From sequence record SRR22947727_980: a stretch of DNA of 53,108 nt, one strand, 5' to 3'. The notes beneath the pieces are model-generated. The model had not been told where the DNA came from, did no database searches, and worked only from the letters and a program-made list of their open reading frames with translations. Positions 4,243 to 34,988 of this stretch are shown piece by piece; the stretch's first letter is position 1; the number at the start of each line of letters is the position of its first letter. The position numbers were made by a program, and so were the translations under genes.

Positions 4243-4275
4243 AAAAATAAAAAATGGAGGGTTTAACCCTCCATT
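4243..4275 (-). terminator. Rho-independent terminator of the TonB-dependent receptor gene
   Basis: Inverted repeat AATGGAGGG-TTTAA-CCCTCCATT (4253-4275) followed on the minus strand by a T-rich tract, about 25 nt after the stop at 4300. Confidence 0.85.
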
Positions 4276-4299
4276 ATATAGTTCGAGACTTACGTTAAA

Positions 4300-7200
4300 T
4301 TAAAAATTATAATTAGCACCAAATCTGATTTCATATGCTGAAGCATCGAAACTTGTTGAGAATGGTTGTCCTTCCACCAATGTGCGAGGGAAACCAGGTT
4401 GCTCAAGAACGCCCCATTTGTCATTAATTAGATTAGTTAGATTATCAATGACCATGAACACTTGCGCTCTGTCGCCATCACGCATGCCTGGCAATTCCTG
4501 AGAAATTTTTAAGTCAACTTTAGTCCAGCTTGGGCCAGTGAACTGATTTCTAGTTGTACCTTGTTGAAGGATGCTTGAGTTACCTAAAAATGGAGTGAAA
4601 CTATAGATACTATTTTCTACTCCATCTTGGGTGCGGCTGTATGGACGTCCTGAGCTAGATTGGAAGAAAGCAAAGATACGAGTATCATAGTCTTTCCAAA
4701 AATCTTTTGTGTAAGATACTGAACCTGAAAAACGATGCTTAATATTATAATTCGAAGGAGCTAATACCTCTTCTTCTGGGTCTAGAAATGCTCTGTTGTT
4801 ATAGTTTGAAAACGCAACAGAACTTGTCATAGGCGATACATCTTTTGCATTTGAGTAAGCATAACCAAAGGTCGCTGCCCATCCACTATCCCAGTCCTTT
4901 GAAATACCGAGAGAGGCTACAAAAGCTTCATTTCCAATTTCACTATTAGTCAAAGTAAAGGCATCCATGTTAGGACTGTCATATGTCGGGTATGTAACGC
5001 CATCGACAATGCGTGTTCCATCTTGGATAAGGTCAGCACGTTTAATTATTGCCGTATCTTTACTTTTGGAAATTAATAGGTCGGCTTGGAACAACCATGG
5101 ACCACCAAATATATCCTCACCAGTATTAAAATCTGGTGTCCATGTAGCACCAAGGGAGTATTTCCAATCGGATGGAATTTTAAAGTCAGGGTCAAGGTAG
5201 TTAAGTTCAAAATTACTACCTACTCCAGTAGCCACTGAATCATAGACTACATCTGGTATTGCATAACCAGCAAAGTTAGGAACTCCTTCTTCAGCACCGG
5301 AGTATGTTTGAGCAAACAAGTCGATTGGATTTGGCTGTCCACCACGACCAGCACGTGCTAGTGCACCCACTTGATCAATATTATTTGCTGAATAGTTGTT
5401 TGAAAGCCAAACATTTGGATTACCACCTGAGTATCTACCAATTCCGCCTCGAAGTTGTAAGTCATCAGCCGCGTCCCATGTAAATGCTAAACGAGGCTGC
5501 AATAGGCTTTTGCCATCGAGTGTTTGAGAATTAGAGAATCCATATTCTTGAAGAAAATCAGGATTTTCTGTTGGTGCGTCTGAAGTTGTATACCAATCAA
5601 AACGTGCACCAGCTATAACAGACAAGCTGTCATTTAATTGAATTTCGTCTTGAGCGTATACTGTATTGATAGCATAACCCCAATCAGCAGCTGCATCTAC
5701 AGGGTTTTGCGATGGTGCGTTATTATAGTATATACGATCGACTTGGCCAGCCTCGAATTCATCAATACCACGAAAACGGAGCTCTGTTTCTGTATGTTGC
5801 ACAAATAAATTAAAGATGTTCAAATTACGGTGTTCTGCACCGAATAGTAATGAATGGTTTCCGGCATCATAGTTTGCCCTAAAAGACAAATCTAACTGAT
5901 CATAAGCTAATTTGTTTGCTTGACGGCTATCATCGCCACCCAAGTAGACTGTTACGCCACGGTCGGTACGTATTTGGATTTCTCCAAAATCATTTCCACC
6001 AATTGAACGCACATCATTTTCAAGATCCAGATAACCTACTCTAACTTCTGTTGAGAAATTGTCTGACCAGTCTGAATAGATGGCTCCAGATATGGACTCA
6101 AGCTTAGAGCCTCTGTTGTAAAGGTGATTTGAGAATTCATATTCATTACTATCCCCGTCAGAACGTACTGTGTTGAAGCCATCATTATAATTATATGTGA
6201 AGGCAGCTCTGTGCTGGTCATTAATATTCCAGTCGAGCTTAACTAATATTTTTTCATCGGCATTGGCAAAGCTTGAAGGCGTTGTGCCTGGGTTATATTG
6301 ATAAACGCGATTAGAGATTTCTGAAATTCGGTCAAGTTCCGCTTGGCTGACCTGAAAATTACCCGTTCCAATAGTTTGGTCTAGATTAAATGTATTCGCA
6401 CCCTCTAGTTTTTCATAAGCTACATTGAAGAAGAGCTTATCTTTGATGATTGGGCCATTTACGTTTATGCCATAACGGATTTCATCATAATCATTGTAAT
6501 TTGCATCTCTTCCATCAACTTTTTTTCCACGGAGTCCGTTATCAGTGTAATCCATAAATGCGCCGCCGTGAATTTCATTCGTACCCGATTTCGTAACTGA
6601 GTTAATGTTACATGCTGTAAATCCACCGTATTTTACATCAAAAGGAGCAATCTCAACGGAAACTTGTTCAATAGCATCAAAAGGAAATGGTTGGCGCTCT
6701 GTAGGGTATCCATTTGAATTTAAACCAAAAGCATCATTCATAGAGATACCGTCAAGTGTTATTGAGTTGAATCTTGAACTTTGCCCTACGCACTGTACTG
6801 AGTTTATATCTCCTCTGGATTCGTCCACATAAACTCTAGGGTCTAATCTAATAATATCAGCAATATTTCTGTTTATTGCAGGTGCATTTTCTAATGTTAC
6901 CTGACTGAATGTTGCACTAGGGCCAACTGCTACATCTGCTAAAACTTGCTTTTGAGCCACAACAATGATTTCGTCCACGGAACTGCTTGCATCAAGAGAA
7001 AAGTTCATCGAGGTCGAACCACCGAGTGAAAGGCTGATGTTTTCCACGCGCTTACCTTGGAAACCATTTGCTGACACTGTTACTTCATACTGACCTGAAA
7101 CGGGCAAGTTTCTAACAGCAAAACTACCAGATACATCAGTTTGTGCGCTTCTCGTTAAGCTTGTAGCTGTATTTGTTATAGTTACTTGTGCTCCGGATAA

Positions 7201-7347
7201 AGGTGCATTGCTAGAAGTTGTAACATAACCCTGTACTTCTGATGTTGTAACTTGCGCTTGTGCTATTGAACCAAGGCTCATAGCAAGGGCTATAGATGAT
7301 GCGCTCATGATGGCTTTGAAGCCTAATGAAGTAATGTGTGAGTTCAT
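4300..7347 (-). CDS. TonB-dependent receptor, Oar-like, with N-terminal carboxypeptidase-regulatory-like domain; candidate nucleoside/nucleic-acid fragment uptake
   Basis: Signal peptide (..AQA-Q); N-terminal LSGAQVTI...GSF...Y.VTVSA.GF domain; plug motifs (NSITLDG, YGGFTACNINSVTKSGTNE); C-terminal RFGANYNF. Substrate inferred only from neighbours. Confidence 0.9.
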   Translation of the reverse strand: MNSHITSLGFKAIMSASSIALAMSLGSIAQAQVTTSEVQGYVTTSSNAPLSGAQVTITNTATSLTRSAQTDVSGSFAVRNLPVSGQYEVTVSANGFQGKRVENISLSLGGSTSMNFSLDASSSVDEIIVVAQKQVLADVAVGPSATFSQVTLENAPAINRNIADIIRLDPRVYVDESRGDINSVQCVGQSSRFNSITLDGISMNDAFGLNSNGYPTERQPFPFDAIEQVSVEIAPFDVKYGGFTACNINSVTKSGTNEIHGGAFMDYTDNGLRGKKVDGRDANYNDYDEIRYGINVNGPIIKDKLFFNVAYEKLEGANTFNLDQTIGTGNFQVSQAELDRISEISNRVYQYNPGTTPSSFANADEKILVKLDWNINDQHRAAFTYNYNDGFNTVRSDGDSNEYEFSNHLYNRGSKLESISGAIYSDWSDNFSTEVRVGYLDLENDVRSIGGNDFGEIQIRTDRGVTVYLGGDDSRQANKLAYDQLDLSFRANYDAGNHSLLFGAEHRNLNIFNLFVQHTETELRFRGIDEFEAGQVDRIYYNNAPSQNPVDAAADWGYAINTVYAQDEIQLNDSLSVIAGARFDWYTTSDAPTENPDFLQEYGFSNSQTLDGKSLLQPRLAFTWDAADDLQLRGGIGRYSGGNPNVWLSNNYSANNIDQVGALARAGRGGQPNPIDLFAQTYSGAEEGVPNFAGYAIPDVVYDSVATGVGSNFELNYLDPDFKIPSDWKYSLGATWTPDFNTGEDIFGGPWLFQADLLISKSKDTAIIKRADLIQDGTRIVDGVTYPTYDSPNMDAFTLTNSEIGNEAFVASLGISKDWDSGWAATFGYAYSNAKDVSPMTSSVAFSNYNNRAFLDPEEEVLAPSNYNIKHRFSGSVSYTKDFWKDYDTRIFAFFQSSSGRPYSRTQDGVENSIYSFTPFLGNSSILQQGTTRNQFTGPSWTKVDLKISQELPGMRDGDRAQVFMVIDNLTNLINDKWGVLEQPGFPRTLVEGQPFSTSFDASAYEIRFGANYNF

Positions 7348-7485
7348 TTAATTCTCTATGGGTTGTGAGATTTATCTCGGGTGAATCATTAAAAAAATTT
7401 AATCTTGAGCATTAATACTTATTTTTCGTCCATCATGCCACCTATCAACAACAAAAAACTGTGAATTGAAATTATTTTTTTTATA

Positions 7486-7503
7486 TGTTGTACTCTTACA
7501 ACA
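7486..7503. promoter_or_regulatory. Palindromic candidate transcription-factor site between the divergent receptor and udk genes
   Basis: TGTTGTA-CTCT-TACAACA, perfect 7-bp inverted repeat. Confidence 0.55.
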
Positions 7504-7588
7504 CCTCTGACTTCACTTAATAGAAAATATCATTAGCATCTATAAGAATGGTTTGTTAGTTAGGGGCTAATTTAAAAAAGTAATATTT

Positions 7589-8221
7589 ATGTCACATATC
7601 ATAGTTATTTCAGGTGGTAGCTGTTCCGGAAAAACCACTTTAGCAAGACTCTTACAAGAACGTTTAGGGCCTAATCGCTCCATGATCATTTGTCAGGACG
7701 ATTATTACCTCGATATACGCGAGAGAGTGACAGATGATAAAATTCCAAACTTTGATATTCCCGATGCTCTTGATTTTAATTTACTATTAGAAAACCTTGA
7801 GTGCCTGAAGGAAAATAAGTCAGTCGTTTTACCTAAGTATGACTTTTCAGTGCATCAAAGAATTGATTCTTCCAGCCTCACAGATCCAAAAGATTTCATA
7901 ATTGTAGAAGGTTTATTGTTGTTAGATAATCCTGGAATTAGAAATTTTTCCGATTTATCTGTATATCTATCTTGTTCTAAAGACATCCGATTTGAGCGAA
8001 GACTAACTAGGGATGTTAAAGAAAGAAAAAGAATAAAGGAATTCGTTATTAAACAATTTTCGAATGATGTTGAGCCAGCACATGTCAAGTACATTAAACC
8101 CTCCTCTGTTCATGCAGATTTAATCATAGATCAAAATGACTTTATAAATTCTGTTGACCAAGTGCTAGAGACTATTATGGATTTACTTCCTAAGGTTGAT
8201 TCTAAAAAATCAGTTTGTTAA
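7589..8221 (+). CDS. udk: Uridine kinase family protein
   Basis: P-loop GGSCSGKTT, QDDYY, NFDIPDA, IIVEGLL, RRLTRD. Confidence 0.88.
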   Translation: MSHIIVISGGSCSGKTTLARLLQERLGPNRSMIICQDDYYLDIRERVTDDKIPNFDIPDALDFNLLLENLECLKENKSVVLPKYDFSVHQRIDSSSLTDPKDFIIVEGLLLLDNPGIRNFSDLSVYLSCSKDIRFERRLTRDVKERKRIKEFVIKQFSNDVEPAHVKYIKPSSVHADLIIDQNDFINSVDQVLETIMDLLPKVDSKKSVC

Positions 8222-8244
8222 ACACTTCCTCTTAGGGGCAATTT

Positions 8245-9477
8245 ATGAATCATCCAGCTTTTGGCTTAATAGGCGTTTTTCTCATTCTTTTAATGGCATG
8301 GCTTTTTTCAGAGAATAGGAAAGCAATAAGACTCAGAACAGTCTTTATTTGTTTCGCGTTGCAAGTTTTTATAGCTGTTTTAGTATTATATGTACCTTTT
8401 GGTCAAAAAGTTCTCACAGGAATGTCTGATCTCGTAATCACTTTACTTTCCTATGCTGATGTTGGGATAGATTTTGTATTTGGCGGCTTAGCATCTGAGA
8501 ATATTGGCTTTAGTTTCTTAATTAGAGTCTTGCCAGTTGTTATTTTTTTTGCTGCCTTAATGGAGGTTATGTATCACCTTAAAGTTATGCAATTTATTGT
8601 ACGTCACGCAGGAAGAGCAATATGTAAATTAACAAATACGAGACCTGTTGAATCTTTAAATGTGGTAGCCAATATCTTTGTTGGGCAGACTGAAGCACCT
8701 TTGAGTCTTAAGCCATATTTGCCAAGTATTTCTCGACCTGAACTCTTTACTATCATGGTTTCTGGTATGGCTTCAATTGCAGGAACTGTTTTAGCTGGTT
8801 ATATTCAATTAGGTATCAAGCCTGAATATCTAATTGCAGCTTGCTTTATGTCGGCCCCTGCAGGGCTATTAATGGCAAAGATAATAATGCCATCCAGTGA
8901 TGAAGATTTTGATAAACCAGTGGATGAAGTGTTTGATCTCGCTGATGACCGTGAACATGCAAATGTTATTTTAGCCGCCGCTGTAGGCGCGCAGAATGGT
9001 ATGAAGCTTGCTGTTAATATAGGAGCAATGTTGTTAGCTTTCGTATCTTTGATTGCTTTATGTAATGGACTTCTTGGTTGGGCTGGAGGTTTTTTTGGCG
9101 TTGATAGCTTATCCATGCAAACAATTCTTGGTTTTATATTTGCTCCTGTAATGCTGGTATTAAATGTTCCATGGGCGGAGGCACAACAAGCTGGAGCTAT
9201 TTTTGGAGAAAAAATTGTACTTAATGAATTCATAGCATACATAAGTCTTGTAGATGTGCAGGGACAGCTATCCGAACGTACAGTTGTTGTTTTGACTTTC
9301 GCACTTTGTGGGTTTGCTAATTTTAGCTCAATTGCTATTTTGCTCGGGGGCCTTGGGGCCCTTATTCCTGACCGTATGTCTGAAATGGCAAAGATGGGAA
9401 TCAAAGCGGTATTTGCTGCTTCTCTTGCAAACTTAATGAACGCTGCTTTGGCAGGGATACTAATCAGTGGTTTTTAA
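8245..9477 (+). CDS. nupC: Concentrative nucleoside transporter (CNT/NupC family)
   Basis: Multi-TM; ANIFVGQTEAPL, GMASIAG, NEFIAY, FALCGFANFSS CNT motifs. Confidence 0.93.
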   Translation: MNHPAFGLIGVFLILLMAWLFSENRKAIRLRTVFICFALQVFIAVLVLYVPFGQKVLTGMSDLVITLLSYADVGIDFVFGGLASENIGFSFLIRVLPVVIFFAALMEVMYHLKVMQFIVRHAGRAICKLTNTRPVESLNVVANIFVGQTEAPLSLKPYLPSISRPELFTIMVSGMASIAGTVLAGYIQLGIKPEYLIAACFMSAPAGLLMAKIIMPSSDEDFDKPVDEVFDLADDREHANVILAAAVGAQNGMKLAVNIGAMLLAFVSLIALCNGLLGWAGGFFGVDSLSMQTILGFIFAPVMLVLNVPWAEAQQAGAIFGEKIVLNEFIAYISLVDVQGQLSERTVVVLTFALCGFANFSSIAILLGGLGALIPDRMSEMAKMGIKAVFAASLANLMNAALAGILISGF

Positions 9478-10402
9478 GTCCAATTTCAATTAAACGTTGA
9501 GTTAGGAAGTCTTGCGCTGTAATTGCTGGCTCGGCTTCACGGTCCTCACTCAAGCAGCTTTTCAGTGGCTCAATTATTGTGTCATTGTTAAGATGTAAAA
9601 AGAAAGGTTTTGAATATCTTGAAAACATTGCTCTACTTGGCTTTGGATTTATAACGCGATGGGTTGTTGAAGGCAAAAGACCAGATGTTATTCTTTGAAG
9701 CATATCGCCAACATTGACAACAACCGCTCCTTTTTTAGTATTAATATCTATCCAGTTTCCAGACCTGTGTTTGGCTTGAAGTCCTGACTCTGATGCTCCG
9801 AGTAATAGTGTTATAAGGTTAATGTCTTCATGCTCGCCTGCACGTACTGAGCCATTTGGGGGAGTTACTTTTTGAGCAGGATAATGTAGGAGCCTTAATA
9901 TGGAGTTACCAAAATTCACTTTATTTTGAAACCAATCTTCATTTAAATTTAAATAAATAGCTATTGCTTTTAGTAACTCATTTCCAAATTTATCAAATTC
10001 TTCATATAATTTAAATATGTTTTGGTCGAAATTCTTTATTTCAAGAACGGGTGGGGTGCATTTCATTGTTTTGTTATACTTTGACGATGGAGGAAGCTTT
10101 CTTCCTGTATGCCAAAATTCTTTTAAATCTGCTTCTTTTTTGTTCTTTGCATTTTCTGTACCGATAGGTGAATAACCACGTTGAAAGCCATCTTCTGGAT
10201 CAGAATATTTTTGTTTAATATTTTGCGGCAATGAAAAAAAAGCTTCAGATGATATATCGGCATCATGAATTACTTTTTCAGGTATTCTATGATTTTCAAT
10301 TACAGCAAATCCAGTTTCTTTAAATGATTGACCGAGTAATTTAGAAAAAGCAAACTTATTTATGCTCCAAAGTTGATAATCAATTGGATCTAATTTGATC
10401 AT
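9464..10402 (-). CDS. 2-oxoglutarate/Fe(II)-dependent oxygenase, isopenicillin-N-synthase-like (DIOX_N + 2OG-FeII_Oxy)
   Basis: N-terminal GFAVIENHRI...FFSLP; LRLLHYP; metal ligands H-E-D (HEDINLITLL) and H (STTHRV); RYS 2OG-binding motif; NVGDMLQ. Confidence 0.9.
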   Translation of the reverse strand: MIKLDPIDYQLWSINKFAFSKLLGQSFKETGFAVIENHRIPEKVIHDADISSEAFFSLPQNIKQKYSDPEDGFQRGYSPIGTENAKNKKEADLKEFWHTGRKLPPSSKYNKTMKCTPPVLEIKNFDQNIFKLYEEFDKFGNELLKAIAIYLNLNEDWFQNKVNFGNSILRLLHYPAQKVTPPNGSVRAGEHEDINLITLLLGASESGLQAKHRSGNWIDINTKKGAVVVNVGDMLQRITSGLLPSTTHRVINPKPSRAMFSRYSKPFFLHLNNDTIIEPLKSCLSEDREAEPAITAQDFLTQRLIEIGLKNH

Positions 10403-10463
10403 ATGATGCTTTCAGTTAACATTTTATACTATAATATATATTGTAATTTATATAGCAAACTAA

Positions 10464-10479
10464 TCTAAATCAATTTAGA
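10464..10479. promoter_or_regulatory. Candidate LacI-family-like operator upstream of ribokinase
   Basis: TCTAAAT-CA-ATTTAGA perfect 7-bp inverted repeat, 18 nt before the rbsK ATG; one base from a TAAATCGATTTA LacI-type core. AT-rich, so chance is possible. Confidence 0.4.
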
Positions 10480-10497
10480 CTTTTTTCTGAGGATAAT

Positions 10498-11355
10498 ATG
10501 ACAAGCTTAAAAATATGCTCTTTAGGTTCTATAAATTTAGACTTTATTGTTCAAACCCATTGTTTGCCCACAGCTGGTAAAACTATAGGAGGAGGTACTT
10601 TTGAAACACACCCAGGAGGTAAAGGTGCTAATGTTGCACTAGCAGCAAAAAAAATGGGTGCATATACTACTTTATTAGGTGCTGTTGGTAATGATGAATT
10701 TGCTGTGAAGGCTCTTGATTTATTAAAAAAATCAGATGTGGACCTTAAAAGCATAGTAGTTCTTGATGATGTCTCTACTGGTGTTGCATTTATTAATGTT
10801 GATGAAGATGGTGAGAATCAGATTGCTGTTGCCTCAGGTGCTAATAAAAAATTCTCTCCTGAGCATATTGGAATTATAGATTATGATGGCATTATTACTC
10901 AATTTGAGATTCCGTTAGAAACAATATTTGAAGCTATCAAGAATTACAAAGGATTTGTGGCAATAAATCCATCACCAGTTTTAGATGGATTGGATAAGTT
11001 ATTACCTTACGCATCAGTTATAATTGTTAATGAAGGTGAATATCAGGCTTATAAGGAAACTCTAAAATCCTATACCGGATTATTAGCAGTTACTCACGGT
11101 GCTCAAGGGGCGGTACTAATTAAAAATAATATTGTATTAGCCTCCGTTAAGCCTCCCCACATGAATGCAATAGATACCACCGGGGCAGGCGATTGTTTTG
11201 CAGCGGCGCTTTCCATATCTTTGATGGAGGGAAGGTCTTACGAAGATGCATTAGCATTTGCATGTGCTGCAGGTGCATTAGTTACTCAAAAAATAGGCAC
11301 GCAACCTGCTATACCGTTTCGCCACGAAGTAGAAAAATTATCTAGTATCTTTTAA
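10498..11355 (+). CDS. rbsK: Ribokinase (PfkB family)
   Basis: GSINLD, PGGKGANVA, NEGE, DTTGAGDCF anion-hole motif. Confidence 0.9.
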   Translation: MTSLKICSLGSINLDFIVQTHCLPTAGKTIGGGTFETHPGGKGANVALAAKKMGAYTTLLGAVGNDEFAVKALDLLKKSDVDLKSIVVLDDVSTGVAFINVDEDGENQIAVASGANKKFSPEHIGIIDYDGIITQFEIPLETIFEAIKNYKGFVAINPSPVLDGLDKLLPYASVIIVNEGEYQAYKETLKSYTGLLAVTHGAQGAVLIKNNIVLASVKPPHMNAIDTTGAGDCFAAALSISLMEGRSYEDALAFACAAGALVTQKIGTQPAIPFRHEVEKLSSIF

Positions 11356-11904
11356 TATTCTAAAAAAACGTTCAGGCACTGGTTTTTTTTCCATTATTTC
11401 TTTAAGGGTGCAGCCTACCATTTCATGTGGGAAAACAGTCCATGATTTAGTTTTGTGAACAAAGTAATCTGGTTTTCTTTTGGTTTTATTTTTTTTTGGT
11501 TTGTAAAAAACCGTAGCGACTTTAATTTCACAGGGCTCGCTTAATTTGCAGTTGGTTTTTATTGCTTCAATTGTTGCTTCAACCGATCGACCTGTATCAA
11601 AGATATCATCAACTAATAAAACTTTACTATCGGATGAAATATTTTCAATAATTTGAGTGATTCCGAAAATCTTTACTTCATTTGATTGCTTGTTTATTCC
11701 TTTATATGAAGAAGTTCTAATGGCAAAGTGTTCTGCATGTACGCCAAGTAAATCTAATATTTCATGAACGGCGATGCCAATCGGTGCCCCACCTCGCCAA
11801 ATTCCAATAATGTGTGTTGGGTTAAACTCACTTTCAAATATCTTGAGCCCCAATTCAAATGAACTTTTAAGTAGTTCTTCAGCTGTAATAAATAGTTTTT
11901 CCAT
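11338..11904 (-). CDS. Type I phosphoribosyltransferase (hypoxanthine/xanthine-guanine PRT-like)
   Basis: GIWRGG, PRPP-binding VLLVDDIFDTGRS, WTVFPHE. Confidence 0.88.
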   Translation of the reverse strand: MEKLFITAEELLKSSFELGLKIFESEFNPTHIIGIWRGGAPIGIAVHEILDLLGVHAEHFAIRTSSYKGINKQSNEVKIFGITQIIENISSDSKVLLVDDIFDTGRSVEATIEAIKTNCKLSEPCEIKVATVFYKPKKNKTKRKPDYFVHKTKSWTVFPHEMVGCTLKEIMEKKPVPERFFRILKDTR

Positions 11905-11975
11905 GTAATAAAGTTAATATAAAGCTTTTCTGTAATCAACTGTTCTAATCCTGTAAAAATACGTTATAGTAATTT

Positions 11976-12914
11976 ATGAAACGGAAACTTATAATTGATT
12001 GCGACCCAGGACAAGATGATTGCATAAATCTGTTTCTGGCCTTACCTCCTACAAATCTGTATGAGGTATTAGGGATAACTGTTGTAGCTGGTAATGTAAG
12101 TTTAGATAAAGTTTCAAGAAATGCCCGTCTGATCTGCGAGTTGTCTAATCGTTTTGATATTCCTGTTTATGAAGGCTGTGATGCTCCTCTAGAGATTTCT
12201 TTGGTAACAGCAGAGGAAGTGCATAGTGATGAAGGTTTAGAAGGAATAGAGATTTTTGAACCAAAAATTAAAGCTCAAGATAAACATGCTGTGGACTTTA
12301 TAATTGATGAATTAATGGCTGCTGAAAACGGAGAAATCACTTTAGTTCCCACAGGCCCTCTTACTAATATTGCATCAGCTATTCAGAAAGAGCCATTAAT
12401 TGTTGATAAAATAGCTGAAATTGTTTTGATGGGTGGCGCTATGAGAGAAGGAGGAAATATTACTCCTTCTGCAGAATTTAATATTTTTGTTGATCCTAAA
12501 GCTGCCCAAATAGTATTTTCTAGTGAATGTAAAATAACTGTTTTTGGGCTTGATGTAACTCATCAAGTTTTATCTTCCTTTGAAGTCCTCGAGAGAATTA
12601 AGGCAATTAAAAATAATGTTGCTCAGTCGGCTTACAATCTATTAACTTGCTATGGTCGATTTGATGCTGAAAAATATGGTAATGATGGAGCGCCATTGCA
12701 TGATCCATGTACAATGGCCTATATCCTTAAGCCCGATTTATTTGAGTTTAAACAATGCAATGTGAGAGTAGAAGTTCAATCTGAATTAACGAGGGGTCAT
12801 ACCTCTGTAGATTTTTGGAATTCCACTAGTTTGCCCCAAAATAGCTTTTGGGCACATAAGGTTGATACTGAGGGCTTTTTTGATTTGTTGGTTCATCAAC
12901 TTAAAAAATATTAA
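11976..12914 (+). CDS. Inosine/uridine-preferring nucleoside hydrolase
   Basis: Ca-binding DCDPGQDD, TGPLTNIA, AEFNIFVDP, LHDP. Confidence 0.93.
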   Translation: MKRKLIIDCDPGQDDCINLFLALPPTNLYEVLGITVVAGNVSLDKVSRNARLICELSNRFDIPVYEGCDAPLEISLVTAEEVHSDEGLEGIEIFEPKIKAQDKHAVDFIIDELMAAENGEITLVPTGPLTNIASAIQKEPLIVDKIAEIVLMGGAMREGGNITPSAEFNIFVDPKAAQIVFSSECKITVFGLDVTHQVLSSFEVLERIKAIKNNVAQSAYNLLTCYGRFDAEKYGNDGAPLHDPCTMAYILKPDLFEFKQCNVRVEVQSELTRGHTSVDFWNSTSLPQNSFWAHKVDTEGFFDLLVHQLKKY

Positions 12915-12919
12915 AGACT

Positions 12920-13504
12920 TTATTTGCAGGTTTTTTTCTCTAGCCAATGTCTTCTGCATAGGCTTATGTACTTTTCATTTCCTCCTACTTCAACTTGTTC
13001 ACCATCTGTTATAGCTTTGCCTTTGGTGTCAAAGCGCAAAGTCATCGTAGCTTTTCTTCCACACCAACAAAGTGTTCTTATTTCTCTCACGTCATCTGCG
13101 ATTGCTAACATTGTAGCGCTTCCGGGAAATAGATTTCCTTTGAAATCTGTTCTAAGACCATAGCACATAACTGGTATGCCAAAATCATCAGATATACTCG
13201 CAAGTTGCCAAACCTGATCTGAGGTTAGAAATTGAGACTCGTCAAGAAGAATACAATCGACTTTTATTTTATTATAATATTGTTTTATAAATTCTTCTAA
13301 ATTTGTATCCGTAGTAAAAATTTCTGCCTCAGCTTTGATTCCAATTCTTGAAACAATGTGATTTGATAATGGATCACGTGTGTCAACCTCAGGCTTTAGT
13401 AGCAGTGTTTTCATACCTCTCTCATGATAATTATATGCTGACTGGAGTAATATAGCAGATTTTCCAGCATTCATTGCCGAATAACTAAAATATAATTTTG
13501 CCAT
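12920..13504 (-). CDS. tdk: Thymidine kinase
   Basis: YSAMNAGKS, LDESQFL, YGLRTDF, zinc-site CWCG...CRRH. Confidence 0.96.
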   Translation of the reverse strand: MAKLYFSYSAMNAGKSAILLQSAYNYHERGMKTLLLKPEVDTRDPLSNHIVSRIGIKAEAEIFTTDTNLEEFIKQYYNKIKVDCILLDESQFLTSDQVWQLASISDDFGIPVMCYGLRTDFKGNLFPGSATMLAIADDVREIRTLCWCGRKATMTLRFDTKGKAITDGEQVEVGGNEKYISLCRRHWLEKKTCK

Positions 13505-13580: not shown

Positions 13581-13796
13581 CTAAAAACTACGACTCCTAG
13601 CCTGAACTCTAAAAGCTTTTGGCACAGGCGGTATTAAAGTTTGGTATGCCTCTTGGGCCAAAAAAAACCCGCGCTCGTCCGCATAGGGACTATCAGGATG
13701 AAAAAACTTTGCTTTTTTACGCCAAGCAGTCCTAATGTCGGCTTCTCTTGCTGACATATTGAGACCTAAGGTAAGTAAGGCTTGTTGACGTGTCAT
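13581..13796 (-). CDS. Minimal J-domain protein (about 71 aa)
   Basis: MTRQQALLTLGL...IRTAWRKKAKFFHPD...AYQTL. Start moved to the ATG at 13796, where the J-domain begins. Confidence 0.8.
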   Translation of the reverse strand: MTRQQALLTLGLNMSAREADIRTAWRKKAKFFHPDSPYADERGFFLAQEAYQTLIPPVPKAFRVQARSRSF

Positions 13797-13923
13797 TATT
13801 ATAGCCCTAAATTCTAAGAGGAAACCATTATTCGATATCAGCGTATCTGATAATAGTAACGACATAGTTAACAATAAGGTTAATTATAGGGTTAATTAAT
13901 AAATTTTTAGCTGTGGAAATACA

Positions 13924-16294: not shown

Positions 16295-16432
16295 ATGCCA
16301 TAAAAATATTTTTTTTATTAAATTTTAGTAATTTTTTTCTTGTGACTCATGCTTTTATAGGATTTAAGCATAGATTACATACGGAATGAATCCGTCAAAA
16401 TTAAAATGAAACCAGTTCGAAGGGGTTCCTTT

Positions 16433-19818: not shown

Positions 19819-19892
19819 TGGGGCGTAGCCAAGCGGTAAGGCATCGGGTTTTGATCCCGTGATCGTTGGTTCGAATCCAGCCGCCCCAACCA
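19819..19892 (+). tRNA. tRNA-Gln (anticodon UUG)
   Basis: Acceptor TGGGGCG/CGCCCCA; D-arm GCC-AAGCGGTAA-GGC; anticodon loop TTTTGAT; T-arm GTTGG-TTCGAAT-CCAGC; encoded CCA; U1-A72 pair. Confidence 0.96.
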
Positions 19893-20119: not shown

Positions 20120-20935
20120 TTGGTGAATTTACGTATCGCCACTAAATCAATATTATTAGGGGTTGCAGCCTTAGTTGTTTCCGCGGGTAACAATGCTTAT
20201 GCGCAGAGTTCATCCTTGGAAACCTACAAGAGTATACTACAGCAAATATCTGACCTAAAATTATCTACAGCTCAGAAGGAAGTTTTTGTTCAAACTCAAA
20301 ATGATAAAATTTCTAACCTTCAAGGACAGATTGAAGGAATTCCGGCCACAACAGTAACTGTTGGTCCATTGCTTCAAAAAATGGCAGCAGCTATCGAAAG
20401 TGAAATATATTCTGATTATCCTTTTAAAATTGAAGAGCGTTTAATTCGTCTTGATAAGTTTAAAGAAACGCTAGATGATCCTGAGGCATCACCGGGTCAA
20501 AAAATGAGACAGGCATTAAATATATACGATATAGAGGTGGGTTATGGTAATTCAGTTTCTTCATATACTGGTAATAACCCTATAAACCCTGGTGTTAGAT
20601 ATGCTGCTTGTCAAGAAGATCAGGATAGTCGCGCTTGTGGTTTAACGGATGACCATAAAAAGAAAATGGCTTATAATAATGGTAAGCCAACAGGAAATGG
20701 GGCTTCAATTGAGGATCTAAAACCTGAGCTTATGGACGGCGCATATCTTCATTATGGTCGACTTTCTTTTGTATATCTAGAATTTGATAGCTCAGAAGCT
20801 TGGCGATATGATTTAGACACTAAGAGTTGGGTTGAGTTATCGGGCTCTGATGTATTGGATGTTAGGAGAGCAGTTAGAATTGCACGTGGACAATCAGCAC
20901 CAGGTGTTTTATCTGCTCCTGTACATTTGAATTAA
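20120..20935 (+). CDS. DUF3450 (TtpB-like) periplasmic coiled-coil protein, paralog 1
   Basis: TTG start after SD GGAGGG; signal peptide; D.PF...ER..R, IEVGYG, YGRL, AVRIARGQSAP motifs shared with the next gene. Confidence 0.8.
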   Translation: MVNLRIATKSILLGVAALVVSAGNNAYAQSSSLETYKSILQQISDLKLSTAQKEVFVQTQNDKISNLQGQIEGIPATTVTVGPLLQKMAAAIESEIYSDYPFKIEERLIRLDKFKETLDDPEASPGQKMRQALNIYDIEVGYGNSVSSYTGNNPINPGVRYAACQEDQDSRACGLTDDHKKKMAYNNGKPTGNGASIEDLKPELMDGAYLHYGRLSFVYLEFDSSEAWRYDLDTKSWVELSGSDVLDVRRAVRIARGQSAPGVLSAPVHLN

Positions 20936-21009
20936 TAAAAATGGGTACAGAAATGCTTTATGGTATTTCTGAAGTAAATAAACAACGAAAGCAAACTTGG
21001 AAGGAAACC

Positions 21010-21771
21010 ATGTTAAAATCTTCAATTGCAAAGCGCTTTTTGATGCTAGGGGCTGCCGGGCTTATGATGTCTGGCCCTGCTTACGCTCAGCTTGAGAGTG
21101 CGTTAAATACGGCTAAAGCATCATCATCGGCAAGCGCAGCATCTCAACAACGAATAGAGGGCCTTGATGACGAGGCTGATCAAGCGGTTCGAGAATTTCG
21201 TGCCGTTCTTCAGCAGAAAGATAATATAGCTCTCTTTATAGCTCAGCAGGACGTATTTTTGCAGTCGCAAAAGTCTGAAATAGCTAGTTTGGGGCGGCAA
21301 TTGGGAACTGTTGAGCAGATTAAGCAAGGCATGTCACCCATGATGCTTAAAATGGCTGCAGAGATTGAAGATACCATTAAGGCTGATATTCCTTTTAACT
21401 TAACTGAGAGACTTTCTAGAGTTGAAAGAATGAAAAATGTTTTGGCTGATCCCGATGTATCGCCTGCAGAGCAATACAGACAGGTGTTAAATGCTTTTAA
21501 AATAGAAGTATCATATGGTCAGGGTATAGATAGTTATGAGGGTATGCACCCGACTCGACCAGGAAACGTCGTTAACTTCTTACGTTTTGGACGAGTATCT
21601 CTTGTTTATATGACAAAAGATGAGTCAGAGGTTGGTAGATATAATCTAGAAAATCGCTCATGGGATATACTTAAAGGTGCTGATGCTTTGGCTTTACGTA
21701 AAGCAATACGTATTTCCAAGGGTGAAGCAGCCCCAGATGTGGTCTTCGCGCCAGTCACAGTTAGCAATTAG
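21010..21771 (+). CDS. DUF3450 (TtpB-like) periplasmic coiled-coil protein, paralog 2
   Basis: SD AAGGA then ATG 21010; signal peptide (..AYA-Q); DIPFNLTERLSR, IEVSYG, FLRFGRVSL; sits before TtpC. Confidence 0.85.
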   Translation: MLKSSIAKRFLMLGAAGLMMSGPAYAQLESALNTAKASSSASAASQQRIEGLDDEADQAVREFRAVLQQKDNIALFIAQQDVFLQSQKSEIASLGRQLGTVEQIKQGMSPMMLKMAAEIEDTIKADIPFNLTERLSRVERMKNVLADPDVSPAEQYRQVLNAFKIEVSYGQGIDSYEGMHPTRPGNVVNFLRFGRVSLVYMTKDESEVGRYNLENRSWDILKGADALALRKAIRISKGEAAPDVVFAPVTVSN

Positions 21772-21787
21772 GTTTGAGGGAAAAAAA

Positions 21788-23173
21788 GTGAGTAACAAAA
21801 TGAAATTCTTTACTAAGACAACGGCCACTATAATGAGTGCCGCATTAATGCTTTCAGCTACTGCTGCGAGTGCTCAGATAAACTCTATAAGTGATCTTTT
21901 GAATCAGGTGCGTTCAGATTCTGCTAAAACTGCTGCAGAGAACCGTGATCGTGAAGCCAAATTTAGACAGAAACGTAATCAGCAATCTGCTCTTTTAAGG
22001 CAAGCTCGCGGCGAACTCGGGGCACTAGAGCGTAAAGCGCAAAGCGTTCAATCAACTTTTGATGCTAACGGAAGAAGAATAGCTCGTCTTGAGGGCGAAC
22101 TTAGGGCAGCCCAGGGTGATTTTGGCGAAGTTTTTGGACTTGCAAGATCTAAAGCGGGTGAGTTTAAAGCTATACTGGATAGTTCACTCATAACTGCTCA
22201 GTATCCCACCCGAACTGAGGTTCTAGGTACTGTATCAGAGTCTAAGGCTCTTCCAGACTCTGATCAGTTAAATGCAATCTGGCAGTCAATGCTTCAGGAG
22301 ATTAAAGCGCAAAGACAGGTAGCTACTTTCTCAGCTCCTGTTGCTAATGTTGATGATGGGGCAATGCAGTCAGTGACTCGTGTTGGACCATTTTCGATAT
22401 TTACAGCTGAAAATGCTGACTTTTTACAATATACACCTCCTTCTGGAAGTGAAGAGAATACACTTCTTGCAAAATTACCTCGTCAGCCAGGCGGAGCAAT
22501 CTCTTCTGCTGCTTCTGATGTAACTAAAACAAACTCGGGTATTGTTTATGCTCCGATTGACCCAACACGTGGAGAGCTATTAAAGTCTTTCGAACGTGTT
22601 CCGGACACTGGGGAGCGAATTGCACAAGGTGGAACTATCGGTAAGATCATACTCTTATTATTAGCTATAGGTGTTCTATTTGGTATCCTTAACATAGTAC
22701 GTCTTTCATTGGCTAAGATGGCTGTAGGTGGACAGAAGCGTAATGCCCAGCCTGATGAAAAGAATGCTTTGGGTCGTATTATGATGGCTTATGAAGGTTC
22801 AAAAAATAAGGATGCAGATACAGTCGAGCTCAAGCTTGATGAAGCTATTCTTCGCGAGTCGCCCAAATTTGAATTTGGGTTGAACTTTTTAAAACTTGCG
22901 GCTGGTATAGCCCCTCTATTGGGATTATTGGGTACTGTTACAGGTATGATTAAGACCTTCCAAGCTATGATGATTTACGGTACTGGTGATCCTCAGTTAA
23001 TGGCTGGCGGTATTTCTGAGGCATTGGTAACTACGATGCTTGGTCTCATAGCTGCAATTCCTCTTCTAATATTGCATAGTTTCTGTTCTTCTATAGCGCG
23101 TTCTATTCAAGGAACGCTTGAGGAGCAGTCAGCTGGTATAGTTGCGCGTCATGTTGAAAGCCGTGGTGCGTAA
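21788..23173 (+). CDS. TtpC-like long MotA/TolQ/ExbB proton-channel protein
   Basis: GTG 21788 after SD GAGGG (ATG 21800 is an alternative); signal peptide; periplasmic coiled coil, VTRVGPF, IDPTRG; C-terminal APLLGLLGTVTGMI...GGISEALVTT. Confidence 0.88.
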   Translation: MSNKMKFFTKTTATIMSAALMLSATAASAQINSISDLLNQVRSDSAKTAAENRDREAKFRQKRNQQSALLRQARGELGALERKAQSVQSTFDANGRRIARLEGELRAAQGDFGEVFGLARSKAGEFKAILDSSLITAQYPTRTEVLGTVSESKALPDSDQLNAIWQSMLQEIKAQRQVATFSAPVANVDDGAMQSVTRVGPFSIFTAENADFLQYTPPSGSEENTLLAKLPRQPGGAISSAASDVTKTNSGIVYAPIDPTRGELLKSFERVPDTGERIAQGGTIGKIILLLLAIGVLFGILNIVRLSLAKMAVGGQKRNAQPDEKNALGRIMMAYEGSKNKDADTVELKLDEAILRESPKFEFGLNFLKLAAGIAPLLGLLGTVTGMIKTFQAMMIYGTGDPQLMAGGISEALVTTMLGLIAAIPLLILHSFCSSIARSIQGTLEEQSAGIVARHVESRGA

Positions 23174-23208
23174 AATTCCAGTTATAAAGCTGTGGAAAGG
23201 TTAATCAG

Positions 23209-23730
23209 ATGAATCCCATCAATGTTTATAACGGCCTCCAAGAGTTTTTGGGAGTTGGCGGAGTTGTACTTTTTGTGATAATGTTAGTAACTTTCGCTCT
23301 TTGGACATTTATTCTTGAAAGGTTTGCGTATTATTTCTTTGCACACAAACCTGCCATGTCTGAGTTGAAATTAGAGTGGAATGCTCGGAGCGACAAAACA
23401 TCTTGGCGGGCCCATGCTGTTCGAGATGAAATGGTTTCGCAGATTAAGGAAAAAACTGATACTAATGTTGGCATTATCAAAACATTAGTTGCGTTACTTC
23501 CCTTGCTCGGTTTACTTGGTACTGTTACGGGTATGATCGAAGTTTTTGATGTGATGGCACTTTCAGGCTCATCTAATGCACGACTTATGGCTGGTGGAGT
23601 CTTTAAGGCAACAATCCCAACAATGGCGGGTATGACAGCAGCATTATCAGGTTTATATTTTTCAACTGTATTGCCGCGTTGGAGTGCACGTGAAACTGCT
23701 CGTTTCTCTGATGAATTACAGGTAGGATAA
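23209..23730 (+). CDS. exbB: ExbB (MotA/TolQ/ExbB family)
   Basis: LPLLGLLGTVTGMI, MAGGV.KATIPTMAG. Confidence 0.88.
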   Translation: MNPINVYNGLQEFLGVGGVVLFVIMLVTFALWTFILERFAYYFFAHKPAMSELKLEWNARSDKTSWRAHAVRDEMVSQIKEKTDTNVGIIKTLVALLPLLGLLGTVTGMIEVFDVMALSGSSNARLMAGGVFKATIPTMAGMTAALSGLYFSTVLPRWSARETARFSDELQVG

Positions 23731-23734
23731 TATT

Positions 23735-24154
23735 ATGCGAAGAGGACGCCGTAAATCAGGTGGTGATGAAGCCGAAGTAGATATGACGCCAATGCTTGAC
23801 ATTGTGTTTATCATGCTCATTTTCTTTATTGTGACTGCAACATTTCTGGATGAAAAGGGTGTAGACCTTACTCAGCCTCCACCGCCTCCAGACAATGATA
23901 TACCAACAAAATCTACTCCTGCAATTACTGTGTATGTGGATGGTAGGGATCAGTGTTCTGTAGATGGGCAGGGTACAACTTGCGATAGAGTTTCTCTGCG
24001 TGTTGAACGATTGCTAGCTGATAAGCCAGGCGCGAGTGTTATTCTCAGATTAGACGAGGGTGCCAGGCATGAGCTTATGGTTGGCTTGAAAGATGAATTG
24101 GATACAAAAGGTTTGGCTTCGAAAATAGAAATTCTTCGAACAACTGGTTCTTAA
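23735..24154 (+). CDS. exbD: ExbD/TolR protein, copy 1
   Basis: DMTPMLDIVFIMLIFFIV TM with the conserved Asp. Confidence 0.9.
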   Translation: MRRGRRKSGGDEAEVDMTPMLDIVFIMLIFFIVTATFLDEKGVDLTQPPPPPDNDIPTKSTPAITVYVDGRDQCSVDGQGTTCDRVSLRVERLLADKPGASVILRLDEGARHELMVGLKDELDTKGLASKIEILRTTGS

Positions 24155-24204
24155 AAAGAATTTTTTGACGTATGCCTTCTGTGTAAATGAAATAAGGTAG
24201 TAAA

Positions 24205-24603
24205 ATGGCAAGACGAAGTCGCATTCAAATGGATGATGAGGATACAGAACTAAACATGACACCAATGCTGGATGTTGTGTTTATTTTATTAATATTTTTC
24301 ATTGTTACTTCAGTTTTTGTAAAAACGCCAGGGATTGAACCTTCAAAACCTGAGGCAGTAACATCTAAAGAGTGGAAGCCTTCTATCTTGATCGCTGTAA
24401 ACTCTGCTAATGAAGTGTGGATTGATAAGCGCCCATACGATGTTGATGAAATTAGACCTGTAATTATGTCAATGCAGGCTGAAAACCCAAAAGCAGAAGC
24501 TATTATTAATGCGGATAAAGATTCTGAGGTTGGTGTTGTTATGTCTGTTCAAGAAATGATGCAAGATTTAGGAATTGTCACACGTGTTGGAACAAGTCAG
24601 TAG
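24205..24603 (+). CDS. exbD: ExbD/TolR protein, copy 2
   Basis: NMTPMLDVVFILLIFFIV TM with the conserved Asp; IINAD. Confidence 0.9.
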   Translation: MARRSRIQMDDEDTELNMTPMLDVVFILLIFFIVTSVFVKTPGIEPSKPEAVTSKEWKPSILIAVNSANEVWIDKRPYDVDEIRPVIMSMQAENPKAEAIINADKDSEVGVVMSVQEMMQDLGIVTRVGTSQ

Positions 24604-24612
24604 GAACTAAAG

Positions 24613-25242
24613 ATGAAGAATGTAATTAGATGGATACTTGGATTTCCTGTAGCTGCTTTAGTTACTATAGGATTGTTTATATTGATGATGACTCTAATTG
24701 CGGAAGAGTTTAAACCGCAAGAGAAGTTAGCCACTGCTTCATTTGATATTAATCCAACAGTTGAAGACATAAAAGTTATAAAAAGAGATACTAAAGTTAA
24801 GCAAGTAAAAAAAGTTGTTACACCTCCACCCCCCCCAACTATTGAGAGGCAACAGGCTGCTAAACCACAAGAACGTATTGCCTCTTTGGAAGGAGCAATT
24901 CCGGATTTTGAAGCCCCTAAGATTGATAGAAAGAACTTCAAAATTGCTGTATCAGACCGTGATGCTCAGCCACTAGTAAGAATACCTCCTATTATGCCAC
25001 CACGTGCAGAAAAATCTGGGCATTGCAGGGTCAAGTTTGATGTAAGTCCTGAAGGAGCTCCATTTAATGTGACAACGACTTTTTGTACTCAAAGACTTTT
25101 TGAGCGTGCGACAATTAAGTCTGTTCAAAGGTGGAAGTATAATCCTAAGATAGTTGATGGGCGCGCTGTTGCTCGAAATGGAGTTGAGAATAAAGTAACT
25201 TATCGTCTTACTGACGAGCGTGGTCGCATTATTCCTGAATAA
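24613..25242 (+). CDS. tonB: Short energy transducer TonB
   Basis: N-terminal TM, PPPPP linker, C-terminal domain (GHCRVKFDVSPEG...WKYNP.IVDG). Confidence 0.88.
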   Translation: MKNVIRWILGFPVAALVTIGLFILMMTLIAEEFKPQEKLATASFDINPTVEDIKVIKRDTKVKQVKKVVTPPPPPTIERQQAAKPQERIASLEGAIPDFEAPKIDRKNFKIAVSDRDAQPLVRIPPIMPPRAEKSGHCRVKFDVSPEGAPFNVTTTFCTQRLFERATIKSVQRWKYNPKIVDGRAVARNGVENKVTYRLTDERGRIIPE

Positions 25243-25293
25243 ATAATAGTTTAACTCTTCTTCTGAAGAGTAATTTGAAAATTGGAGAAATTG

Positions 25294-26793
25294 ATGATGG
25301 CTCTTTATCGGAAAAAGTCTTCACTTAAAAAACTTATAGCGGCTACGGCTATAGCGCTCGTTTCAGCCACATCACTTCCTGTTTTGAGCGTATCTGGGTT
25401 TGCCTATGCGCAAGAAGTTACAGAGGGAAGGCAATTTTCTGCCAAAGCAGGCGAAGCTGTAAATGCAGCTCTTCAACTGATTAATAATGACCAGCACAAA
25501 GAGGCTTTAGTCGCTTTGAATGCTGTATTAGTTTTTCCAACACTTAACCCATATGAGCGATCAACTATTTATCAAATGCAAGGCGCCAGCAATTATGAGT
25601 TAAATGACTATCCTGCTACAATTACCTCCTTTAGAAATGCTATTAAAGCAGGCGGTTTGTTACCCAACGAAATAAATAGTCTGCAAGTAAATATAGCTCA
25701 ATTAATGATAGCTAATGGACAATATGCTGAAGGAGCTCAAGCTCTTGAGCGTTTTATTAATAGAACTGGGCAAGTTAAGCCCGCTTATATTGAAATGTTA
25801 ACCCAAGCATGGGTGCAATCAGAAAACTATAAGAAAGCATTACCTTGGGCTGAGAAATGGTTCAAAGCCGCTCGCCCTAAAGAACGTAAGCATTTTGACT
25901 TAATGAACTTTTTATACAACAACTTAGGAATGCAAGCTCGCCAAGCTGATATCGTAAAGCAGATGATTAGTAGGTGGCCAGAAGACAAAAACCTTTGGGA
26001 TGCTTGGGCTTCTATGCTGGCGAACGGAGGCCGAGAACAAGAAGCTTTTGAGGTTACTAAGATGTTGTATCTAGGTGGAGCACTAAATTCTGAGCAAGAC
26101 TTAATGAAAGTTGTACAGTATTACTCTTTTTACGATATGCCATTTCAGGCGGCTGAGATTCTTGAAAAAGAAATGAATGCAAACCGAATATCAAGATCAT
26201 CAGAAAAAATGGTTCAATTATCTTCTTTATTTCGTCAAGCACGTGAATACAAACGAGCGATACCTATTTTAGAGAGCGCAGCTGCAAGTTCTGGTAAAGC
26301 TAAATTATATGCTGATTTGGGGGAAGCGCTTTATAATGAAGGACAGTGTTTAAAAGCTGAAACAGCCTTTAAAAGTGCTATTAATAAAGGTTATGATGCT
26401 GGTAAATCTTGGATGTTAATTGCCACATGCCGTTATGAGGACACACAAAAACAAGCAAGAATTAATTGTAAAATGTCTGAAGAAGAAAAGCGTTCAGCAC
26501 CAATTACTAAATCACGTGAAAGCGCTATACAGGCATTTGAGCAAGTTCCAAGTTCATCACGCGAGGGAAGAAACGCTAAAAAATGGATTTCGTTCATAAA
26601 AGCAGAACGCCAAGCTGTTGAAAATCGATGTATTTTTGAAGCTAACGTGGTTAAAGAGCTTTGTTTTGCAATTATTAAAGGTGCTTACGATAATGAGGTT
26701 TTTGTTGGAAGATTTGATCTCGATGATCCAAAGTGTGAGGCCTTTAAGGAAGAGTACGATTCCAAGTATCGTGTAAAAATAGTTGAAAGATAG
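25294..26793 (+). CDS. Periplasmic tetratricopeptide-repeat protein (TtpD-like)
   Basis: SD GGAG; signal peptide (..AYA-Q); multiple TPR-like helices; last gene of the Ton operon. Confidence 0.82.
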   Translation: MMALYRKKSSLKKLIAATAIALVSATSLPVLSVSGFAYAQEVTEGRQFSAKAGEAVNAALQLINNDQHKEALVALNAVLVFPTLNPYERSTIYQMQGASNYELNDYPATITSFRNAIKAGGLLPNEINSLQVNIAQLMIANGQYAEGAQALERFINRTGQVKPAYIEMLTQAWVQSENYKKALPWAEKWFKAARPKERKHFDLMNFLYNNLGMQARQADIVKQMISRWPEDKNLWDAWASMLANGGREQEAFEVTKMLYLGGALNSEQDLMKVVQYYSFYDMPFQAAEILEKEMNANRISRSSEKMVQLSSLFRQAREYKRAIPILESAAASSGKAKLYADLGEALYNEGQCLKAETAFKSAINKGYDAGKSWMLIATCRYEDTQKQARINCKMSEEEKRSAPITKSRESAIQAFEQVPSSSREGRNAKKWISFIKAERQAVENRCIFEANVVKELCFAIIKGAYDNEVFVGRFDLDDPKCEAFKEEYDSKYRVKIVER

Positions 26794-33500: not shown

Positions 33501-33501
33501 C

Positions 33502-34986: not shown

Positions 34987-34988
34987 TT

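Follow-up and report, generated by a model that had tools for sequence, protein, structure and literature searches.

Pairing of a TonB-dependent receptor with nucleoside genes in many sea bacteria suggests an undescribed route for feeding on DNA and RNA fragments

Dissolved DNA and RNA are reported to be a large marine source of phosphorus, nitrogen, and carbon (PMC8289736), and the literature that we searched leaves unsettled how proteobacteria take dilute pieces of nucleic acid across the outer membrane. The closest known system is the ddb family of DNA utilization loci of Bacteroidales. In Bacteroides thetaiotaomicron, ddbABCDEF is described as an operon encoding secreted nucleases, the TonB-dependent transporter DdbC, and its DUF5689 partner DdbD, with downstream enzymes left unidentified in the available text, which credits Pseudomonadota with pilus-based DNA uptake only (PMC12478041). 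We analyzed an eight-gene cluster at positions 4300 to 13504 of SRR22947727_980, a 53,108-nucleotide stretch of DNA (the window) from a Hellea-like alphaproteobacterium, in which a TonB-dependent transporter (TBDT), here called the receptor, lies beside genes for nucleoside transport and salvage. Gene neighborhoods support the conclusion that receptors of this family travel with nucleoside and nucleic acid catabolism genes in Alpha- and Gammaproteobacteria.

A TBDT anchors nucleic acid use in ddb, as we propose here, a likeness of arrangement. Relatives of our receptor also have nuclease neighbors (19 of 79 homologs), and divergent ddb receptor subtypes are reported to swap at one chromosomal position (PMC12478041), like the slot in two Hellea-like genomes described below. 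Unlike ddb, the window cluster holds the inner-membrane (IM) and cytoplasmic steps and no nuclease. DUF5689 gave no match in G001, the nearest relative genome (97% complete), while a B. thetaiotaomicron control was positive. The nearest Bacteroides receptor matches are 27 to 29% identical, lie beside ettA and an EEP nuclease without DUF5689, and are probably a different paralog from DdbC; a search through plasmid records found no DUF5689-linked receptor.

Three further systems invite comparison. The ribose utilization systems (RUS) of Bacteroidetes are likewise utilization loci with ribonucleoside-cleaving hydrolases and ribokinases, but they are polysaccharide utilization loci (PULs) centered on ribose, and their available description does not mention a nupC-udk-tdk-oxygenase core (10.1101/574913). 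Riemerella anatipestifer RA0C_RS04915, a proposed DNA carrier, shares the N-terminal PF13620 domain with our receptor (a likeness of domain), but it acts in natural transformation with a DUF5689 partner, and its homologs are reported only in Flavobacteriaceae (PMC8459023). The PUS and low-phosphate TBDTs of Flavobacterium johnsoniae, likened here by description, are controlled by phosphate, lie beside phosphatases, and are proposed to import organic phosphorus; they differ in belonging to Bacteroidota, in lacking nucleoside salvage genes, and in that their cargo is not identified in the available text (PMC8115612). No proteobacterial TonB locus for nucleosides or nucleotides was described in the literature searched, which left out subscription papers and the majority of supplements. 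The main texts of TBDT surveys mention neither nucleosides nor nucleases, and a marine DNA stable-isotope-probing paper does not mention TonB, the supplements of both lying outside the search. An earlier note on this DNA had called the system its best candidate for an undescribed one; that it is undescribed holds within this search for Proteobacteria, whereas TonB-centered DNA and ribose utilization loci have been published for Bacteroidota (PMC12478041; 10.1101/574913).

All eight open reading frames (ORFs) of the locus were confirmed, and the gene families that the earlier note had named hold:

4300..7347, minus strand: TBDT of 1015 amino acids (aa), with Pfam CarboxypepD_reg, Plug, and PF25183 barrel domains and a signal region
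4253..4275, minus strand: terminator-like hairpin with a T run directly after the receptor gene, a consensus match only (the terminator scan overall gave 5 sites against 6.3 from shuffles, not above chance)
7348..7588, no strand: divergent promoter region between receptor and udk; the best Pho-box match has 5 mismatches, and larger-genome relatives carry a Pho-box-like site here
7589..8221, plus strand: udk, uridine/cytidine kinase, above the NF004018 cut-off and below that of TIGR00235
8245..9477, plus strand: NupC/CNT nucleoside transporter, sodium or proton coupled, with the three CNT domains (PF01773, PF07670, PF07662); 431 bits against TIGR00804, just below the cut-off of 442
9464..10402, minus strand: Fe(II)/2-oxoglutarate (2OG) oxygenase of the DIOX_N type by Pfam, near the uncharacterized structures 3OOX and 3ON7
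10498..11355, plus strand: PfkB kinase, ribokinase-like (PF00294; best match TIGR02152, below cut-off)
11338..11904, minus strand: type I phosphoribosyltransferase (PRTase; PF00156), probably acting on purine bases, as its nearest solved relatives are purine PRTases
11976..12914, plus strand: IU-type ribonucleoside hydrolase with the N-terminal aspartate motif (PF01156; RihA and IU-NH structures at E 1e-72 to 1e-65)
12920..13504, minus strand: tdk, thymidine kinase, above the NF003300 cut-off

The cluster is flanked by aroC on one side and, on the other, by a short DnaJ-like ORF (13581-13874, minus strand), which stays beside tdk in same-genus genomes, and then by pdxH. The strand order over the eight genes is -, +, +, -, +, -, +, -. 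After the udk-nupC pair the strands alternate, and the cluster has three divergent gaps (241, 95, and 71 bp) and three convergent junctions (a 14-bp overlap, an 18-bp overlap, and a 5-bp gap). Hence, the genes make up about seven transcription units and form a cluster, not an operon. A sigma-70 scan found 28 sites against 33.8 in shuffles, no excess, and with this strand layout we rejected a strict operon or PUL reading. A TBDT, an IM transporter, and catabolic enzymes are clustered here as in a PUL or a CUT (carbohydrate utilization containing TBDT) locus, but there is no dedicated regulator gene; Colwellia-type loci have a TetR_C_3 (RutR-like) gene next to the receptor. RUS has a SusC/SusD pair, and a Pfam scan found no SusD family member among the genes flanking our receptor. 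Family scans of the eight genes gave no nuclease, nucleotidase, or regulator match, in agreement with the earlier note, which had seen no nuclease or nucleotidase gene. Its term "PUL-like" fails in the strict sense, since a shared operon, a regulator, SusD, and a polymer hydrolase are all missing. RNA data from four runs consisted of contigs, so that expression could not be ranked. In one run, positions 4289-7381 are covered by one contig of 3117 bases, which ends before udk, a weak hint that the receptor has its own transcript, library DNA being a possible source.

In same-genus genomes, nupC and the oxygenase gene were present in 8 of 17, always in the cluster beside the receptor (one receptor is cut by a contig end, and in one genome tdk is absent where the contig ends). 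In the remaining nine, neither nupC nor the oxygenase gene was matched, and any receptor match was weak. Receptors 96 to 97% identical to that of the window were found in Hellea sp., and the full cluster also occurs in G028 and L079, followed by PhoD and AMP nucleosidase genes. In the same-genus genomes G004 and G012, a receptor paralog only 34 to 35% identical occupies the same slot with its neighbors kept; NupC is 87 to 88% identical despite this divergence, and the receptor tree sets both copies far from the window copy. Among 61 relatives, nupC never gave more than one match per genome (44 had a match), and Plug-domain matches numbered 15 to 81 per genome in five genomes, three of them Alteromonadaceae. 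That this one receptor family nevertheless lies beside nupC is more than chance would give.

We then looked across classes at 79 loci chosen by receptor similarity alone, three of which are near-identical Hellea copies. Nucleoside, nucleotide, or nuclease genes lay within 10 kb of the receptor in 39 of them, with nupC in 24 of these, nupC together with the oxygenase gene in 20, and a nuclease gene in 19. The remaining loci had phosphatases only (5), aguA, which encodes agmatine deiminase (14), or no labeled partner (21). We also drew an even sample of 121 Alteromonadaceae genomes, of which 106 have the receptor, 110 have nupC, and 10 have neither. Receptor and nupC were at most 10 kb apart in 75 of the 105 genomes holding both, where less than 1% would be expected by chance (20 kb make up about 0.5% of a 4-Mb genome). 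The synteny with nucleoside genes on which the earlier note had staked its proposal was thus observed. The other 31 receptor loci (30 from the remaining genomes with both genes and one from a genome lacking nupC) had EEP or S1/P1 nuclease genes in 24 cases, cdd-deoA in one, and nothing labeled in six. Partners vary by lineage and include EEP, S1/P1, PhoA, PhoD, Amn, PpnN, UshA, NCS1, and cdd/deoA/upp; such lineage-specific sets point to repeated recruitment. Nucleic acid contexts are spread across the whole receptor tree (99 sequences of at least 900 aa, FastTree).

Some of these loci hold further features. Two genes of little-known function (L097:6432-7385 and L106:8635-9501) recur upstream of the receptor in Alteromonas/Pseudoalteromonas-type loci, often with S1/P1 nuclease and ushA genes, and one of them has a weak phosphonate-binding match. 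Four loci (L128, L081, L137, and L151) contain two or three divergent receptors of the family, which suggests subtypes with different cargo, e.g., DNA versus RNA or different lengths. In the Woeseia-like loci L125, L126, and L140, the receptor is accompanied by 5'-nucleotidase, acid phosphatase, carbon-nitrogen hydrolase, NCS1 permease, and amidohydrolase genes, possibly a reductive pyrimidine breakdown module.

Upstream sites bear on cargo. We scanned for Pho-box and RutR consensus sequences, allowing a Pho-box match at most two mismatches. Pho-box-like sites lay upstream of 35 of 89 receptors; the other strand gave 7, coding controls gave none, and shuffles predicted 1.3. Among the 35 are copies in Hellea (G010, G004, and G012), Algimonas, Alteromonas, and Paraglaciecola. 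None was found before the window receptor or its three nearest kin. Hence, the receptor looks to be under phosphate starvation control in relatives, and in the small-genome lineage, which lacks the box, it may be constitutive or otherwise controlled. RutR-like sites precede 12 of 72 receptors and none of the controls, and they would tie the gammaproteobacterial copies to pyrimidine sensing. Neighbors of the receptor include PhoD, PhoA, PhoX, acid phosphatase, PstS, and porin O/P, and G001 keeps PhoB, PhoD, and Amn elsewhere in its genome. Pho-box-like sites together with phosphatase and nuclease neighbors fit nucleotides or short oligonucleotides better than nucleosides or agmatine, and these are more likely to be the cargo than free nucleosides. 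Where the earlier note proposed nucleosides or short oligonucleotides, we therefore keep the oligonucleotides and consider the free nucleosides less likely.

Might the receptor instead import free nucleosides, with dephosphorylation completed outside the outer membrane? That nupC and udk are its most constant neighbors would suit such a role, as would the RutR-like sites and a window cluster that has no nuclease, phosphatase, or Pho-like site. However, nucleosides hold no phosphorus, so the Pho-box-like sites would be hard to account for; in the close relatives L035, L078, and L079, the gene right after the receptor encodes PhoD or PhoA; and nucleosides fit through porins. We regard this explanation as improbable. 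Hardly better placed is a general Pho regulon importer of organophosphates for which nucleotides are one cargo of several. It would explain why Pho-box-like sites precede 17 of the 22 aguA-linked copies, which lack nucleoside neighbors, and it accords with the phosphatase, PstS, and porin O/P neighbors, with the phosphoesterases adjoining Bacteroidota relatives, and with the low-phosphate-induced TBDTs reported in Flavobacterium (PMC8115612). The dominant partners are nucleic acid specific, though (nucleases, nupC, udk, cdd, deoA, Amn, and PpnN), and the receptor is missing too from 10 of the 11 Alteromonadaceae genomes without nupC. Least probable, and by our estimate very unlikely, is that the salvage cluster alone is the real feature, with the receptor a bystander or an importer of some unrelated substance, for instance agmatine or polyamines. 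Transcription of the receptor gene does lead away from the salvage genes; in the 14 aguA loci this gene is followed by aguA and a carbon-nitrogen hydrolase gene, which are also downstream of it in Hyphomonas, Henriciella, Brevundimonas, and other Caulobacterales (some at 53% identity), with polyamine synthesis genes nearby in Brevundimonas. Yet the aguA-linked copies are scattered on the tree among nucleic acid-linked ones, a pattern suggesting that Caulobacterales have kept the receptor at one chromosomal position; Pho-like sites precede the majority of these copies; and the linkage to nupC is far above expectation.

Several observations weigh against nucleotides or oligonucleotides as the cargo and against the linkage as its basis. 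No labeled partner was seen in the 21 loci noted above, several of them on short contigs, and since kin are not independent, the linkage counts overstate the number of events. One Hellea receptor homolog, 67% identical, is unlinked to the nupC cluster of its genome, and the closest relatives of the window receptor outside Maricaulaceae-type loci (53 to 55% identical) include some with agmatine deiminase and carbon-nitrogen hydrolase neighbors and no nucleoside genes. The varied phosphoesterases beside the distant Bacteroidota relatives fit a broader organophosphate uptake. The Pho scan covered this receptor family only, and the window receptor lacks Pho-like and RutR-like sites alike.

The receptor protein itself is a typical TBDT, with a PF07715 plug, a PF00593/PF25183 barrel, and a C-terminal Phe (F1015) that is invariant in 73 sequences. 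A PF13620 (CarboxypepD_reg) extension occupies residues 38-118. An N-terminal extension between signal peptide and plug is described for the Oar-like TBDT subclass (PMC1790865), and the label "Oar-type" applied to our receptor refers to this domain layout only. An AlphaFold model gave a plug-and-barrel fold (pLDDT 87.8) whose matches are solved TBDTs at only 9 to 14% identity; phmmer found no solved structure matching the sequence, and a profile search gave plug-region matches only. At least 5649 of 8000 scored candidates are homologs, and the names of the best 120 are generic. The structure says nothing about cargo, and the case is one of gene context.

We now turn to the 2OG oxygenase. After 3OOX and 3ON7, its nearest solved relatives, come an entry named ethylene/succinate-forming enzyme and the Neurospora thymine 7-hydroxylase (E 7e-32), the best relative with a published pocket study. 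The Neurospora enzyme has the DIOX_N fold family in common with ours, and its metal and 2OG ligands and Phe292 are kept (PMC4787775): H191, D193, H248, R170, Y174, R262, and S264 answer to its His-X-Asp...His, Arg190, Tyr194, Arg286, and Ser288, and F268 to Phe292. Four of the six thymine-contacting residues differ, with Asn87 replaced by Q74, Glu122 by H98, Asn294 by H270, and Tyr217, which forms the base sandwich with Phe292 and where Phe or Trp would be allowed, by I194, which is invariant in 33 homologs. With these four residues replaced, the protein was rejected as a thymine 7-hydroxylase; it differs further in being bacterial and in having no decarboxylase gene in its cluster. Membership in the PHYHD1/FJS 2'-O-methyl nucleoside demethylases, which are PhyH-type dioxygenases (PMC12709175), was rejected as well, since Pfam assigned DIOX_N and 2OG-FeII_Oxy and no PhyH. 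The literature searched, with the same limits of access, gave no function for the oxygenase family and no fungal 2'-dioxygenase sequence for comparison, and the ESM Atlas names are automatic and uninformative.

Three oxygenase subtypes (about 33%, 40%, and 45 to 67% identical) share the invariant pocket residues, and each lies beside nupC or beside hydrolase and ribokinase genes. In the Alteromonadaceae sample, all 40 genomes without deoC, but 11 of the 69 with it, have the oxygenase gene at most 1.5 kb from nupC. Contrary to the reading of the oxygenase as a bystander, it is a core member of the cluster. Strict mutual exclusion with DeoC was not found: the gene is present in 115 of the 121 genomes, most deoC holders included, and among 74 chosen genomes it occurs in 14 of the 23 with deoC and in 46 of the 51 without (one scored positive from a 30% homolog in its locus). 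What follows the loss of deoC is only the placement of the gene next to nupC, and this distribution counts against a simple alternative to DeoC. In a Xanthomonas record (L192:146-1573), the oxygenase gene follows a cytidine deaminase family gene, another nucleoside-type neighbor.

Salvage genes elsewhere in the genomes frame what this enzyme might do. We found no match to deoC, a pyrimidine phosphorylase (deoA type), or upp in any of the eight cluster-bearing same-genus genomes (81 to 99% complete) and none to cdd in the five genomes checked. The substrates of IU hydrolases and Udk are ribonucleosides, so these bacteria would seem to have no obvious route for deoxynucleosides, thymidine and deoxyuridine excepted. 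Pyrimidine-deoxynucleoside 2'-dioxygenase, a fungal activity (EC 1.14.11.3), converts deoxynucleosides to ribonucleosides with 2OG and O2. In fungal thymidine salvage, a thymidine-to-ribothymidine hydroxylase, known here from the title of a reference, is paired with a ribonucleoside hydrolase (PMC4787775). An oxygenase that hydroxylates C2' would explain the adjacency to nupC in genomes lacking deoC, and we put it forward as a candidate deoxynucleoside 2'-hydroxylase, at somewhat less than even confidence. Perhaps the enzyme instead removes or oxidizes modifications of bases or nucleosides, by oxidation of the thymine methyl group or demethylation of modified RNA nucleosides, and leaves C2' alone? 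A thymine 7-hydroxylase as best studied relative, the 2OG-dependent demethylation reported for 2'-O-methyl nucleosides (PMC12709175), and the retention of the oxygenase in most deoC holders make this plausible. Nevertheless, the changed thymine contacts, Tyr217 to Ile among them, and the PhyH type of the published demethylases speak against it, and a thymine-to-uracil route would be of little use where Upp has no match. We consider such a role only slightly less likely than C2' hydroxylation.

Returning to nucleotides and short oligonucleotides as cargo, we think it fairly probable that the cluster is the uptake and recycling end of a route for scavenging nucleic acids. Extracellular nucleases, encoded elsewhere or by other organisms, would cut DNA and RNA into fragments. 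The TBDT would carry nucleotides or short oligonucleotides into the periplasm, where phosphate would be released by phosphatases such as PhoD, whose genes lie elsewhere in this lineage and adjoin the receptor in relatives. From what is known of their families, NupC would import the nucleosides, and Udk and Tdk would rephosphorylate those with pyrimidine bases; alternatively, the hydrolase would split ribonucleosides into ribose for the ribokinase and base for the purine PRTase. The oxygenase may, with the same reservation as above, hydroxylate C2' of deoxynucleosides to yield substrates for Udk and the ribose-specific hydrolase, a step proposed because these bacteria lack DeoA, DeoC, and Upp. 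In G001 we found no S1/P1 nuclease, endonuclease I, or 5'-nucleotidase C domain; its nuclease-type genes are two exonuclease III-like EEP genes, one short SNase-like match, and one Endonuclease_NS gene (L250:1411-2704). The ORF next to the last of these repeats a neighboring gene in its second half, and the contig looks chimeric.

Other genes of the window deserve brief mention. One feature that may bear on the receptor lies outside the cluster, after tRNA-Gln (19819-19892):

20120..26793, plus strand: two DUF3450 genes, two ExbB, two ExbD, a 209-aa ORF, and a TPR protein, by Pfam

These genes are likely a TonB-energizing operon, and a link to the cluster would be by inference; the 209-aa ORF has no match at E 1e-12, and the name "TonB" for it was guessed from its position. 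Another TonB-dependent receptor, from a different family (1062 aa, 16406-19594, plus strand), is kept in near kin, is covered by RNA contigs in all four runs, and is split into two ORFs in G014. A 215-aa ORF (15523-16170, minus strand) has a signal-like start and no Pfam match. An Mrp/Mnh-type Na+/H+ antiporter operon with three Proton_antipo_M subunits spans 29090-37098 (plus strand), and a 603-aa ORF (48849-50660, minus strand) with a weak partial PEP carboxylase match is possibly a divergent or partial ppc.

That this receptor family is the main, so far unnamed, outer-membrane importer of nucleotides and short oligonucleotides in marine Alpha- and Gammaproteobacteria and, at the same time, that the 3OOX/3ON7 family oxygenase is a bacterial deoxynucleoside 2'-hydroxylase is a joint proposal that we hold to be rather unlikely in full. 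If both were true, there would be an oxygen-dependent route from dissolved DNA to ribonucleosides without the DeoA/DeoC pathway. For the oxygenase, the analysis supplies a testable hypothesis for a widespread family with two solved structures and no function. For outer-membrane passage, it puts forward as a candidate a receptor family that occurs in 106 of the 121 Alteromonadaceae genomes as well as in small-genome Hellea and that can be counted in metagenomes. The pairing of this receptor with nucleoside genes in so many sea bacteria suggests that they feed on DNA and RNA fragments by a route yet to be described.

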